Virus record (IMG/VR): IMGVR_UViG_3300046468_002660
Direction: 5' to 3' (one strand)
Length of the DNA: 64,000 nucleotides
Source of the DNA: a virus
The position numbers were made by a program, and so were the translations under genes. This document shows positions 3,882 to 55,651 of this stretch, piece after piece. How positions within the stretch are numbered: the first letter of the stretch is position 1; each line of letters opens with the position of its first letter. Below the pieces are notes generated by a model. The model worked only from the letters and a program-made list of their open reading frames with translations. It was not told the origin of the DNA and made no database searches.

Positions 3882-5168
3882 ATGGAAGATAAAAATATAG
3901 TTTATGTCGGAATGAGTGCCGATTTAATTCATCCTGGTCATATAAACATACTAGAGTCAGCTTCTAAATATGGTTTAGTAACAGTTGGACTTCTAACAGA
4001 TAAAGCTATTGCAAGTTATAAAAGGCTTCCAGCCTTAACTTACGATCAAAGAAAAAGAGTTATCGAAAATTTCAAATTTGTATCTAATGTTATTCCTCAA
4101 ACAACTTTAGATTATAGTGAAAATCTAAATAAAATTCGACCTAAATATGTTGTTCATGGAGATGATTGGCGAACAGGGATTCAAAAAAGTAGTCGCCAAA
4201 AAGTCATTGATTTATTAGATTCTTGGGGTGGCGAATTAATTGAGCTCGAATATACTCCAGGTATCTCTTCAACTCAATTACATCAAAGCGTTCAAGAGGT
4301 TGGGGTTACCCCACAGATTAGACAAGATAAATTAAAAAGATTATTAAAAGCTAAAGATTATGTTCGAGTTATTGAGTCTCATAATGGACTAAGCGGTTTA
4401 ATAGCTGAAAATGTAAACTTTGAAGGTAAAGAATTTGATGCAATCTGGCTTTCTAGCTTAACAGATTCTACAGTTAGAGGAAAACCTGATATAGAGCTGC
4501 TAGATCGATACGGAACTTTAAATGATATTATTGAGGTAACAACTAAACCCATAATTGTAGATGGAGACACTGGAGGAAAAATAGAGCACTTTTCTTTCAC
4601 TGTTAAAACTTTAGAAAGATTAGGGGTTTCCGCTATAATTATTGAAGACAAAATTGGATTGAAAAAAAACTCCTTGCTTGGAACTGAGGTTAAACAAGAG
4701 CAAGATTCAATAGAAAATTTTTGCAGTAAAATTAAAGCGGGGAAACATTCACAACGCTCAGAAAACTTCATGATTATTGCGAGGGTGGAGAGTTTTATTT
4801 TAGGGAAAACAGTGGAAGATGCAATTGATCGTGCAAAAGCTTATATAGAAGCTGGCGCTGACGGAATTATGATTCATAGCAAAGAGTCCAATGGTGAAGA
4901 AATTATTGATTTCTGTAATGAATACAGCCTCCTGAACCAAAGAGTACCACTTGTTGTTGTGCCATCTTCATACAATCATTTCACAGAACAAGAATTGAAT
5001 GATCTTGGGGCAGATGTTATTATTTACGCAAACCATTTACTAAGAAGCGCTTATCCTAGTATGGTTAAAACAGCAGAATCGATACTTAAACACTCTCGCT
5101 CTCTAGAAGCTTCAAATGAGTGCATGTCTATAAAAAATATTTTAAATTTAATTCCAGGAACGAAATGA
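3882..5168 (+). CDS. pepM: Phosphoenolpyruvate mutase fused to an N-terminal cytidylyltransferase
   Basis: HPGH (HxGH) nucleotidyltransferase motif; PEP-mutase-specific EDKx5NS motif ([10 protein letters not shown]); DGDTGG. Confidence 0.93.
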
Positions 5169-7358: not shown

Positions 7359-8186
7359 ATGAAAATACTAGTAACAGGACATAAAGGGTATATAGGATCC
7401 CATCTTTATACCGAACTTAAGCAGCGTAAAGATATTACTGAGATTATAGGTGTAGATCTTCAAGATGGAGATGATATTCTTTATTGTTTACCAGATAAAG
7501 ATGTGGATGTTGTATTTCATTTTGCAGCTTTTCCTAGGGTAGAGTACTCTGTTTTAAACCCAAGCTATACCTTTAAACAAAACTGTTTAGTTACTTCTAC
7601 ATTGCTTGATTGGTCTAGAAAACATAATGTCAAAAAATTTATTTTCTCTTCTTCTTCTGCAATTATGGGGGATGGTGACGGAAAACCTAAATCCCCATAT
7701 GGTTTACATAAACTAATTTCTGAGATGGAGTGCAACTTGTATCAAGATCTATACGGAATACAAACGACATGTTTAAGATATTTTAACGCGTATTCGGAAG
7801 ACCAACCTTATGGAGGAGCCTACACAACTGCAATATCAGCATGGATGGAAATGATTCGTCAAAATAAGCCTTTAAGACTTGATGGAGACGGGGAGCAGAC
7901 TAGAGATTTTGTTCACGTTAATGACATTGTCTCAGCAAATATTCTAGCTATGGATCATGACAATATGGATTCTTCCTACTATGATGTTGGATGTGGAGAG
8001 TCTTTTTCGTTAAATTATATTAAAAAATTTATAGATTCTAAAATTGATGTTGAGTGGGATTTTGCTCCACCTCGAAAAGGTGACGCTAGAAACACTTTAG
8101 CTAATATATCACCACTAAAAGATCGTGGCTGGCTCCCTAAAGTTTCTTTTGATGAGGGATTGCAAAAATGTTTCGGCAACTTTTAA
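7359..8186 (+). CDS. NAD-dependent nucleotide-sugar epimerase/dehydratase
   Basis: GHKGYIG, SSSA, YGLHK (YxxxK), RYFN, RDFVHV. Confidence 0.9.
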   Translation: MKILVTGHKGYIGSHLYTELKQRKDITEIIGVDLQDGDDILYCLPDKDVDVVFHFAAFPRVEYSVLNPSYTFKQNCLVTSTLLDWSRKHNVKKFIFSSSSAIMGDGDGKPKSPYGLHKLISEMECNLYQDLYGIQTTCLRYFNAYSEDQPYGGAYTTAISAWMEMIRQNKPLRLDGDGEQTRDFVHVNDIVSANILAMDHDNMDSSYYDVGCGESFSLNYIKKFIDSKIDVEWDFAPPRKGDARNTLANISPLKDRGWLPKVSFDEGLQKCFGNF

Positions 8187-16556: not shown

Positions 16557-17434
16557 ATCTTAAAATAGGTATAGTTGGTCTTGGTTATTGGGGAAAAATA
16601 ATTTTAAAAAACTTAAAAGGTTTAGGGTATAAAAATATAAAAGTATATGAACCAAATAAAATTAATTGGGGAGATATAGGCTTTAAGGTTCCCACGGCAG
16701 AAAGTATGGAGGATTTGCTTGATAGAGATAAAATCTTTGTTGTAACTCCGACTAATACTCATTCTTTAGTTTGTAATTTTTTTATTAAGCATGGTGTAGA
16801 TATTTTTTGCGAAAAACCTTTAACAAATGATTTAAGCGCGACTCTAGATTTGTACAAAAACATTAACGAAAACTCTTCAAAACTTTTTGTTGACTGGCTT
16901 TTTACTTTTAACCCTGCTGTCAAAAAAATAAAGGAAATCATTCAATCGAAAGGAGCTCCCAAAACAATTATTTCAAATCGCTTGAATTATGGACCTCAAA
17001 GATTTGATGTCGATGCGAGGCTAGACTTATCATCGCACGATGTTTCTATAATGTTGCATTGGCTTGAAGTTTTTCCAACTACAATAAACTGGGTTGACTT
17101 TAAAAGAAATAAGTCCTCTGTCACCAATGATAGCAATATTGGAGTTCTTTCATTCGACAAGGGGGACAACACCACATCAGTTCAAATTAATTCTAGTTGG
17201 GAATTTGGAGAAAAAAATAGGGATGTTATAATTGAATTTTACGATGGCGAATTTTTAAAATGGAATGATTTCTCTGGATTGCTTACCTTAAATGGCTCAA
17301 ACATATCTTTTGAAAATTACTCCCCTTTAGAAAAAAGTATTTCTACTTTTTTAGAAAACAAATTTGATCAAGAAAAAAACAAGCTGTTAACTATAAATAT
17401 TAATAAAATTTTGCAAAATGAAGATACAATTTAA
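16553..17434 (+). CDS. Gfo/Idh/MocA oxidoreductase (WbpB/WlbA-like)
   Basis: GLGYWG, CEKP, DL..HD. Confidence 0.8.
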   Translation: MNLKIGIVGLGYWGKIILKNLKGLGYKNIKVYEPNKINWGDIGFKVPTAESMEDLLDRDKIFVVTPTNTHSLVCNFFIKHGVDIFCEKPLTNDLSATLDLYKNINENSSKLFVDWLFTFNPAVKKIKEIIQSKGAPKTIISNRLNYGPQRFDVDARLDLSSHDVSIMLHWLEVFPTTINWVDFKRNKSSVTNDSNIGVLSFDKGDNTTSVQINSSWEFGEKNRDVIIEFYDGEFLKWNDFSGLLTLNGSNISFENYSPLEKSISTFLENKFDQEKNKLLTININKILQNEDTI

Positions 17435-18524
17435 CGACCTTAATGCTCAGTGGCAAATAATCAAAAAAAATACGCTTAAAGAGTTTGAAAAACTTTTTAA
17501 AAAGTCTAATTTTATTTTAGGGGATCAAGTCAAAACTTTTGAAGATAATTTCTCTAAATACATCAACTCAAAATACTCTGTTGGCGTTTCAAATGGAACA
17601 GATGCATTAAAATTGTCAACTCAGGCTCTTGACCTTCAAGGTTCTATATGTTTTATATTGCCAGCAAATACATATGTTGCAACAATCCTCGGTCCTGAGC
17701 AAGCTTACCCAAATGCACATTTTGAAATTGTTGACTGCGATAATTTTCATCAAATTGACACAAAAAAGACAGAAAACTTTTTAAAGAAAAATTCTTCCCG
17801 CTTTGACAGTATTGTGTTAATTCCTGTTCACCTTTATGGATATTCTTGCGACATGGATGAATTAATGAGAATAAAAAAGCAATACAATTGCTACATGATT
17901 GAAGATTCTTCTCAAGCTCATGGAGCACAATGGAAAGGCAAGACGGTAGGGACTTTTGGTGATGTCTCAGCTTTTTCCTTATACCCTGGGAAAAATTTAG
18001 GTGCGGCTGGAGACGCGGGTGTAATATCTACGAACAACAAACAAATTTACGATAAATTATTAAAGCTTAGAGGTTTAGGTTCAGTTAAAAAATATATTCA
18101 TGACATGAAAGGTGGTAATCATCGTTTAGACACTCTTCAAGCAATTATTTTAAATGAAAAAATTAAATTTATTGAAGATTGGAATGAATCGAGAAGAAGA
18201 GTGGTTAAATTTTTTGAGTCGAAAATATCAAATCCAAAGATAAAACTGCCAAAAACTCAAAACTATTGCTTGCCTGTTCATCATATCTACCCAGTTTTAG
18301 TAGATAATAGAGATGATTTTACAAATTTTTTAGATAAACATTCTATCCAGTGGGGTATACATTACCCAATATGTATAGAAGATATGTGCATGTATAAAAA
18401 TTTAGTCCCCAAGCCAAATGTTAAGGCATTATCTTTTAGCAAACGGATGGTAAGCCTGCCAATACATCCTTTTTTAAACGAGCAACAGCTTGACTATTTA
18501 GTTGAAATTTTAAATATTTATTAA
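17418..18524 (+). CDS. DegT/DnrJ/EryC1/StrS sugar aminotransferase (WbpE/WlbC-like)
   Basis: NGTDAL, VHLYG, EDSSQAHG, SLYPGKNLG.GDAG. Confidence 0.92.
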   Translation: MKIQFNDLNAQWQIIKKNTLKEFEKLFKKSNFILGDQVKTFEDNFSKYINSKYSVGVSNGTDALKLSTQALDLQGSICFILPANTYVATILGPEQAYPNAHFEIVDCDNFHQIDTKKTENFLKKNSSRFDSIVLIPVHLYGYSCDMDELMRIKKQYNCYMIEDSSQAHGAQWKGKTVGTFGDVSAFSLYPGKNLGAAGDAGVISTNNKQIYDKLLKLRGLGSVKKYIHDMKGGNHRLDTLQAIILNEKIKFIEDWNESRRRVVKFFESKISNPKIKLPKTQNYCLPVHHIYPVLVDNRDDFTNFLDKHSIQWGIHYPICIEDMCMYKNLVPKPNVKALSFSKRMVSLPIHPFLNEQQLDYLVEILNIY

Positions 18525-53803: not shown

Positions 53804-54670
53804 ATGAGTCTAGCAAAAGAAATCAACGAAAAATTAGATGCAATACTTTTCATGCGTAGTGAAATGCAACGCATGGATCACGACTTGGATGACGACCAAG
53901 TTCTAAATAATATAACAACAGGTGAGAAGACAAATAAAGAACAAGCGTTTGAAATAGTTGAAGGTATGATAAATGATATTAAAAGAGAATTGAATCAAAT
54001 AACAAATAACGGATTAAATATAAAAAATATTTTTACAAATAAATATTATATAAATGATTTTATGCAAGATAAAGTATGTTCTGATATAGAATTGAATAAT
54101 ACTCTTAATGCTCAACAACCAAATGATATAGAATCTAATTAATTAAAATATTTGTTTGACAGGTTTTATATTTGATGCTAGTATATTCTTATAACATTCA
54201 AAAAAGGAGATAATAATTATGGCTAATATAGCAAAATGTGCAAGAGCGACAGCAGTAATGAACAAAGTAAGAGGCAGAGACCCTTTCGCTTTTACTCGCA
54301 GGTTCATGGGTTACAACGAGGCAACCGAAGGTATTCTCGCCCAACAAAGGGAAGCGGATCGTAGGTTAAGACAAATACAAGCTAAAAAACTAGCAAAAGG
54401 GGTAGCGTAATGGATGCGACAATTAAACCTCTTAGTGATAAAGTTAGTATGTTTGCATCTAACGATGAATTATACGAACAATTAACCAACAAAGAATTAA
54501 TGTTAATTAAAATGGTTAAGGCGGAAGAATTCGTTGATGATTTATATAGAGCACACGATTCTGAAGCAAATAAAAAACTATTTCCCCCCGAAAAAAGTTG
54601 GTTTAAAATAAAAGAATTATTGAGAGAATTACGCGAATTAAATAAAAAACAAATAACCCCTAAAATATAA
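53804..54670 (+). CDS. Three hypothetical proteins (53804-54142, 54219-54410, 54410-54670)
   Basis: TTGACA promoters plus SD (AAGGA/AAGGAG). Confidence 0.6.
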
Positions 54671-54786
54671 AAATAATAGTTGACAAATAACAAATAATAT
54701 AGTAATATATAATATATAAAATTGAGAAGGATAAACTCAAATAAATAAAATAATCCAAAATTTTTGTTCTTTTACATTTTAAATTT

Positions 54787-55060
54787 TGAGCATAGATCTC
54801 GCAAGCATTAAGTTGCTAAAAGCCAATTCTTGTAAGTCTCAATTCACTTTGGAAGGGCTTATAATCCTTCCTGTGGGTGACCGAATGAGCCTGTCGTGAG
54901 CGGGCTAAGGTATGCAGATCCCTGTGGTGGGGTTGGTAGAGTCCAATCGGATGAGCCAAATGACAACACCAAGTCTAGTCTGTAGTTGGAAGTAGGTACA
55001 CCATGAACTGATGTTCACGCCGAAAACTTGAGGGTATACAGTAGCCCCTCCCCACACAAT
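54787..55060 (+). ncRNA. Candidate structured non-coding RNA
   Basis: GC-rich ORF-free island with its own promoter (TTGACA 54680, TAATAT 54703), multiple stems and a downstream terminator. Confidence 0.65.
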
Positions 55061-55077
55061 TTTCTCTGATATCCTCG

Positions 55078-55127
55078 ACCCTCCTTGGTTCTCTCTTGCC
55101 CGCCACCTGAACCAAGGAGGGTTTTTG
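55078..55127 (+). terminator. Terminator-like 14-bp hairpin
   Basis: ACCCTCCTTGGTTC / GAACCAAGGAGGGT followed by Ts. Confidence 0.7.
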
Positions 55128-55163
55128 TTTGACAGCTGCTTTTTTATTTATTATAGTATACTC

Positions 55164-55418
55164 ATGAAAACATTAAAAGATATCTTATCAAACTACGGGT
55201 ACATGAACAGCAATCAGCTTAAAGAAATAGCTGAGCACTTCCCTGCATTCAGGGTTGTCATTAAATGGGGCGGACTTCCCCGCGAGCGTCTTCCAGCCTG
55301 GGAGGCAATATCCAGGATTAAATCAGTGGAGACCCAAAACATCGATTACTGTAGAGAGGTGTTTATCTCAGGTACTGAATACAACGCACTCAAACAAGCT
55401 TTCAACATCGCCGACTAA
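55164..55418 (+). CDS. Hypothetical protein (leaderless, start refined to 55164)
   Basis: TTGACA(55129)-17-TATAGT-6-ATG. Confidence 0.6.
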   Translation: MKTLKDILSNYGYMNSNQLKEIAEHFPAFRVVIKWGGLPRERLPAWEAISRIKSVETQNIDYCREVFISGTEYNALKQAFNIAD

Positions 55419-55651
55419 CAAACATTATTAACCAAAAAACATATGGAACCATTGCTAATATTAACATTGGCGATTACACTAGGAATAAAATTATTAGTAG
55501 AGGAAGTAATATAATAATATACAGTATAATATATAACAAATAATAAAAATAAAAATTTAATCAAAATGGACTAGTATAAATAATAAATAATCAAAATAAA
55601 TAATAAAAAAATTTTAAATAAATAAATAATTTGATTATGATTACCTCCTTG

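Follow-up and report, generated by a model that had tools for sequence, protein, structure and literature searches.

The GC-rich island at 54851–55060 (+) of the window, i.e. of the whole 64,000-nt stretch of viral DNA analysed here (IMG/VR record IMGVR_UViG_3300046468_002660), is by sequence comparison a member of the known manA RNA family and falls in a divergent clade of large uncultured marine phages. What stands out is its setting, which we read as an uncultured marine phage with manA as a separate RNA gene and not as the leader of a protein gene.

Identification of the manA RNA and its clade

Scanning of the whole window against Rfam 15 gave three matches above threshold, two tRNAs and the manA RNA (RF01745). 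The manA match (54851–55060, +; 82.6 bits against a gathering score of 55.2, E 1.7e-19) spans model positions 1–192 of 192, so that it represents the whole model, and this region, with helices P1 to P9 supported by the Rfam match and by covariation, was assigned as the manA core. The manA motif was first described by Weinberg et al. in 2010 as a riboswitch candidate, drawn with a "pseudoknot?", from marine metagenomes, T4-like cyanophages and two gamma-proteobacteria (PMC2864571), and Rfam catalogues it as type Cis-reg, riboswitch candidate. An initial annotation, made from the sequence alone, had proposed a novel RNA belonging to no known family and had named an Rfam scan as the check on that claim; the full-length match to a known family shows the novelty claim to be wrong. 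Its broader description as a structured non-coding phage RNA is upheld by the manA match and by covariation in relatives. The island is also GC-rich (GC 0.48–0.50 at 54800–55100 versus 0.18–0.30 in the flanks) and free of ORFs, as had been stated, in that no ORF of more than 50 aa lies within it and ORFs of only 37–50 aa overlap the region. Nothing points to the ribozyme-like character that had been suggested, and no sign of a self-cleavage motif was seen. Beyond manA, no other family matched the island above threshold in the Rfam scan of the window. A candidate RybB sRNA (RF00110; 23.7 bits against a gathering score of 40), in which the terminator hairpin alone aligns, was rejected.

Relatives were fetched from IMG/VR with three short patterns, and a covariance model built from six of them found 51 copies of the window type and 92 copies of a second type. 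Rfam scores are 61–83 bits in the window's clade versus 133–194 bits for the classical cyanophage copies. In the classical clade the next ORF begins at least 6 nt after manA (median about 45 nt), and these downstream ORFs include gp32-, transaldolase-, ThyX- and HAD phosphatase-like genes; the second clade therefore matches the published description of manA. In one classical-clade locus (L155), a glutamine riboswitch (glnA RNA, 38.9 bits; 2112–2160, −) lies about 240 nt from manA, an example of the clustering of structured RNAs in such cyanophage regions.

Contigs with window-type manA reach 180–214 kb. Homologues of rIIA and rIIB are encoded just upstream of manA in the window, the rIIA homologue being 22–27% identical to that of any cultured phage, and a blastn search with the locus among 50,697 phage records yielded nothing beyond chance matches of 20–24 nt. 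Elsewhere in the window, a sugar-nucleotide gene cluster (3882–5168, 7359–8186 and 17418–18524) has homologues that include heptose kinase/adenylyltransferase, nucleotide-sugar epimerase and aminotransferase.

Helices supported by covariation

Covariation was tested on 44 distinct window-type sequences from viral metagenomes. With the family structure plus two loop–loop pairs, 90.3% of the cells were paired and two-sided changes were found in 31 base pairs, and the covariation score was 0.240 versus 0.114 in shuffles (0 of 500 as high) and at most 0.066 with slid partners. The multi-stem architecture of manA, consisting of the P1 hairpin and a closing helix around P3 to P9, is thus backed by compensatory changes, and RNAalifold, run on 13 whole transcripts independently of the model, recovered P1 to P9. 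The single-sequence folding energy was no better than chance for either 54787–55060 (z −0.16) or the core (z −1.26); since these scores are not significant, the evidence for structure consists of homology and covariation, not thermodynamics.

About seven of the helices drawn in the initial annotation agree with the family structure and co-vary, and three do not. GGAAGG/CCTTCC is P1 of the Rfam manA consensus, TGTGGG/CCCACA is the closing helix P2, GCCTG/CGGGC is P3a, TTGGT/GCCAA with its inner TCC/GGA is P6, TGAA/TTCA is P8 and GAGGG/CCCTC is P9, all of them kept or co-varying in the relatives. For GATCCC/GGGGTT, the inner CCC/GGG (P5) holds, but the outer part is no better than shuffles, and CAAGT/ACTTG is likewise no better than shuffled controls among the 44 distinct relatives. 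Tested jointly, the three divergent helices scored 0.153 versus 0.149 in shuffles, with 127 of 500 shuffles as high. In P4, all six pairs show compensatory changes (e.g. GCAGAU/GUCUGU, GCAAAU/AUUUGU and CGCACU/AGUGCG). The outer P8 helix AGUU/AACU, in which 63.8% of the cells pair with no two-sided change, was dropped in this clade.

Two other origins of the island have to be weighed against these data. A new RNA class, be it a ribozyme or another type unrelated to the catalogued families, would accord with the position of the window's clade at the edge of the Rfam model and with its additional 5' modules, but is very improbable and already refuted by the Rfam match and the alignment: RF01745 is matched over its full length above the gathering score, the helices and conserved loop words are the same, the covariance model built from the window's clade recovers the classical copies at 27–71 bits, and self-cleavage motifs and other Rfam families left no trace in the searches described above. 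The chance is smaller still, practically negligible, that the island is a mere by-product, either a recombination module boundary or a coding remnant without RNA function. Two contigs from RNA libraries that diverge from the window right after 55067 do suggest a module boundary, and the short ORFs of 37–50 aa could be taken for a coding remnant; however, compensatory changes in 31 base pairs already contradict this explanation, the sequence is conserved over more than 140 viral contigs, and the length differences among relatives are not multiples of three. 

Complementary loops and probable assembly

The initial annotation had proposed a kissing loop between CTGTA (54980) and TACAG (55037). 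No two-sided change supports this pair in the 44 relatives, and CTGTA lies within the 3' strand of P4; the idea of mutually complementary loops was correct, but the partner had been misassigned. TACAG lies in loop L9 (UAUACAGUAGC, 55035–55045, +), which, as covariation indicates, goes with loop L8 (ACUGAUG, 55007–55013, +), ACUG at 55007–55010 pairing with CAGU at 55039–55042. A two-sided change occurs in this contact (G-C in 33 distinct relatives, A-U in 4), and complementarity is kept through at least four different sequence pairs, the variants being ACUGA/UCAGU, ACUAA/GUAGU and ACUAAA/UUUAGU in the window-type clade and CUGUA/UACAG, UAAUG/CAUUA and CUUUA/UGAAG in the classical clade. When the longest complement between L8 and L9 was compared between a sequence's own loops and the loops of other sequences, the gap was modest (4.81 versus 4.20 bp), the core being identical in most sequences, so that the loop types listed above are more informative.

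A second pair is formed by loop L5 (UGUGGU, 54923–54928, +) and loop L7 (AACACCAA, 54965–54972, +), identified by alignment and loop comparison and, for L7, by covariation. UGGU pairs with ACCA, extended to GUGGU with UACCA in most relatives, and U:A to C:G changes are seen where L5 is GUGGC, which is matched by UGCCA or GCCG in L7 in 5 of 7 cases. In the single-sequence fold, a nested helix between L5 and L7 is also possible, and covariation as such is the same for contacts within a molecule and contacts between molecules.

Contacts between molecules have been described for other members of the family. In a bioRxiv cryo-EM preprint of July 2026, manA RNAs were seen to form decamers and octamers as well as an icosahedral cage of 60 subunits; pentamers joined through intermolecular L5–L7' and L8–L9' kissing loops are the building blocks of all of them, and assembly took place free of ligand (10.64898/2026.07.01.735769). 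The helix numbering that we derived from the Rfam consensus fits the loop names given in the preprint. The window's manA, which has both loop pairs, is probably also a self-assembling RNA, judging from this comparison. The "scaffold RNA" of the initial annotation is compatible with the self-assembly described there and seems a plausible idea for the window.

The P1 loop (54857–54865) contains the palindrome UUAUAA, which is invariant in the window's clade; in the relative L063 the loop reads UUGCAA, a double change that preserves the palindrome. Some P1 loops of classical copies contain UGAUCA, UAAUUA, GAUC or AGCU, and most are a GACG tetraloop. It may be speculated from the sequence that a self-complementary P1 loop could give a two-fold self-kissing contact between subunits.

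Promoter, leader and boxA-like element

The promoter that the initial annotation had ascribed to the island was found upstream as a sigma70-type promoter at 54680–54708 (+; TTGACA, 17-nt spacer, TAATAT; 10 of 12 consensus matches), from whose position a transcription start near 54716 is predicted. It is followed by a 5' leader hairpin, TTGAG-N9-CTCAA (54722–54740, +), supported by its folding energy (z −3.3) and by RNAalifold on 13 transcripts; in the relative L006 the stem is TTAAG/CTTAA, a compensatory change. Among 41 distinct relatives, 33 have a TTGAC −35 box 30–60 nt ahead of this hairpin.

The unpaired part of the leader contains a putative boxA-like element, TGTTCTTTTACA (54765–54776, +), assigned by sequence match. 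It is the sole exact match to TGWTCTTTWAYA on the + strand of the window, and the leader is not reused elsewhere there. Exact copies of this 12-mer were found in 35 loci, once each except in L083, and all of these except L159 are window-type manA loci; checked against the manA coordinates, the matches lie just upstream of manA. Of 41 distinct window-type relatives, 39 have a looser 11-mer, G[AT]TCTTT[AT]A[ACT]A, ahead of manA, and in 33 it occurs together with the leader hairpin and the −35 box. The published boxA consensus is GYTCTTTAANA (PMC5725501). The window site GTTCTTTTACA agrees with 10 of its 11 positions; 6 relatives match it exactly, 19 have GATCTTTAACA and 10 have GATCTTTTACA, most of the sites having A where the consensus has a pyrimidine (position 2). 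The site is unpaired in the RNAalifold consensus fold.

Bacterial genomes searched for the clade's 18-mer TGATCTTTAACATTTTAA gave 29 matches, and no rRNA gene was seen near any of the 16 matches that were examined in addition to L225. As no rRNA leader emerged, the scan offers neither a clue to the host nor support for boxA. L225 is the sole manA carrier among the 29 matches. Its window-type copy (1481–1690, −; 228 bits with the clade model) is on an 11.5-kb contig that has been binned in the MAG "Rickettsiales bacterium MED606", and may represent either a mis-binned phage contig or a weak hint of a host.

Between the leader and P1, the TTGAG/CTCAA-closed domain of the initial annotation does exist (54786–54842, +), but comparison of relatives identifies it as a variable peripheral hairpin insert that is not itself unusually stable (z 0.07). 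L080 and L058 carry the domain as well, 15 relatives lack it, and 24 have unrelated hairpins of 25–220 nt in its place. Among the relatives, zero, one or two such unrelated modules (25–220 nt) are located between the boxA-like site and P1. They were compared in L002, L006, L018, L043, L052, L055 and L058, of which L058 carries the window's module and that of L006 in tandem, and the word CUGAGUAUCGG is common to several of them. From their sequences, the 5' hairpins look like exchangeable peripheral RNA modules.

Terminator, downstream gene and the riboswitch question

The manA core is followed, after 17 nt, by an intrinsic terminator with a 15-bp stem and then a U run (55077–55127, +; −26.9 kcal/mol, z −6.2). 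None of 200 shuffles was as stable, in keeping with the earlier claim that the island has its own terminator. Terminators no more than 150 nt from manA were found in 34 of 44 window-clade loci, with unrelated stem sequences, and in 26 of 89 loci of the classical clade; in the other 10 of the 44 window-clade loci the terminator scan showed none. Immediately downstream is the promoter of the next gene (55129–55157, +; TTGACA, 17-nt spacer, TATAGT; 11 of 12 consensus matches), with its end 6 nt ahead of the ATG at 55164. The distance from the start of the −35 (TTGAC) box to the next ATG is 34–36 nt in 25 of 39 distinct relatives, and from this spacing we infer that the next gene is expressed as a leaderless mRNA from its own promoter.

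That gene (55164–55418, +; 93 metagenome clusters) encodes 84 aa and is not part of the RNA. The protein belongs to no Pfam or PHROG family, and its AF2 model, although confident (pLDDT 93.3), gave no fold match in the PDB at E ≤0.001. In many relatives the gene after manA encodes a homologue with MKTLKDILSNYGY at the N-terminus, in every case expressed from a leaderless promoter.

The main alternative to a free-standing RNA is a cis-acting riboswitch, in which the core would bind a metabolite and the hairpin at 55077–55127 would serve as the expression platform that decides on read-through into the 84-aa gene. Such a reading agrees with the catalogue entry of manA as Cis-reg and riboswitch candidate, with the location of the RNA upstream of a gene on the same strand, with the order of aptamer and terminator that is usual in transcriptional riboswitches, and with the classical clade, where ORFs start so shortly after manA. 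However, the gene downstream has a near-consensus promoter 6 nt before its ATG, a pattern shared by 25 of 39 loci, and the terminator, 17 nt past the core, lacks locus-specific complementarity to it. The latter was examined by an antiterminator test, in which the 3'-terminal 60 nt of manA, together with the linker, were paired with the 5' arm of the terminator from the same or from other loci; among 24 distinct loci, own pairs (−8.0 kcal/mol) were no better than cross-locus pairs (−8.3 kcal/mol), a weak negative result. In addition, no ligand for manA has been reported since 2010 in the literature searched, and the cryo-EM preprint describes self-assembly in the absence of ligand (10.64898/2026.07.01.735769). 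The riboswitch is accordingly rated as unlikely, and a free-standing RNA is favoured because there is no antiterminator signal and the next gene has a separate, leaderless promoter.

As the product of a free-standing RNA gene, the manA of the window's clade would come from its own transcription unit of ~410 nt (roughly 54716–55127) and not be a gene leader, which we consider likely. The 5'-UTR position that goes with the Cis-reg type of Rfam was not found in the window, since a terminator and a separate promoter intervene, and the window's clade shows this same pattern; the difference concerns the genomic context, not the RNA model. The label "Cis-reg" thus does not hold for the whole manA family.

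Occurrence in RNA libraries

Fourteen seawater DNA runs hold at least 80% of the sampled words of window 54400–55500, and six RNA-library runs hold 8–22% of them. Contigs from four RNA-library runs, belonging to four studies, cover 54777–55067 with 0–3 differences per piece. As assembled contigs, these allow for DNA carry-over and bear on presence, not on starts, ends, strand or level; likewise, the flanks of 54777–55067 are uncovered in the four runs, which is not evidence of silence. RNA contigs from two studies match the window up to 55067 and then share the same unlike sequence, so that in a close relative the manA core is directly followed by another module.

Proposed mode of action

The unit is proposed to consist, in order, of a sigma70-type promoter, a 5' hairpin, an unpaired A-rich leader with the boxA-like element, an optional variable hairpin, the manA core and the terminator, after which the next gene would start from its own leaderless promoter. 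It may be envisaged that i) host RNA polymerase transcribes the untranslated RNA early, ii) NusB/NusE bind the boxA-like leader, as they do in rRNA operons, and thereby protect the transcript from Rho and help it to fold, iii) the folded core presents the complementary loop pairs L5–L7 and L8–L9, as covariation shows, iv) these pairs, by homology with the particles described for other family members, link one copy to the next, giving pentamers and closed particles of larger size, and v) speculatively, the palindromic L1 loop UUAUAA adds a two-fold contact.

We thus favour a trans-acting, self-assembling RNA produced by a Nus-assisted unit; the architecture and covariation are observed features of the locus, and assembly, Nus dependence and function are its putative ones. 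In an infected cell, the particles could possibly act as a scaffold, a decoy or a means of sequestration. Taken with all its parts, i.e. a dedicated RNA gene with a boxA/Nus leader whose product forms RNA-only closed particles through L5–L7', L8–L9' and L1–L1' contacts and acts in trans as a cage and not as a riboswitch, the proposal is tentative and, as a whole, rather unlikely. If true, it would describe a virus-encoded RNA cage with a role in trans (sequestration, scaffold or decoy). Ever since its description in 2010, manA has remained an orphan "riboswitch candidate", and the RNA-only cages obtained in vitro in 2026 are still without biological context. The window's clade may offer such a context, with a dedicated promoter and terminator and a boxA-like leader resembling that of rRNA operons; since the neighbouring gene is also transcribed separately, it is argued that the RNA acts on its own.

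Comparison with known systems

The window's RNA shares with the manA family the match to the whole model, the P1 hairpin and closing helix around P3 to P9, the occurrence in marine phages, the conserved words GUGGU in L5 and ACCA in L7, and the L8–L9 complementarity. Unlike classical manA, the window's clade has an invariant P1 with the UUAUAA loop and variable hairpin modules 5' of P1, and it forms its own unit, with a boxA-like leader and a terminator, instead of lying 6–60 nt before a start codon. The carrier also differs, as it is not a T4-like cyanophage, its rIIA homologue being at most 27% identical to those of cultured phages.

In the leader of the E. coli rrn operons, the boxB hairpin and then an unpaired boxA, the site of NusB/NusE, precede a long untranslated RNA, which is the arrangement of rRNA operons. 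The window's leader resembles this antitermination leader in having a promoter-proximal hairpin, then an unpaired boxA-like 11-mer and then a long untranslated structured RNA; it differs in being phage-encoded, in preceding an RNA of ~210 nt and, across the clade, in having mostly A at position 2 of the consensus.

The dimerization initiation site (DIS) of HIV-1 is a kissing loop of the palindromic type. By analogy only, the P1 loop is like it in offering a six-base self-complementary hairpin loop, here UUAUAA, that could pair with a second copy; the likeness does not extend to most classical manA copies, which carry a GACG tetraloop instead. Other natural RNAs from bacteria and phages that are large or ornate, namely ROOL, GOLLD and OLE, assemble into RNA-only homo-oligomers by way of loop–loop contacts, as reported in the cryo-EM literature of 2024–2025. 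None of the three was matched in the Rfam scan of the window. They are much longer (several hundred nt) and are unrelated to manA in sequence and fold.
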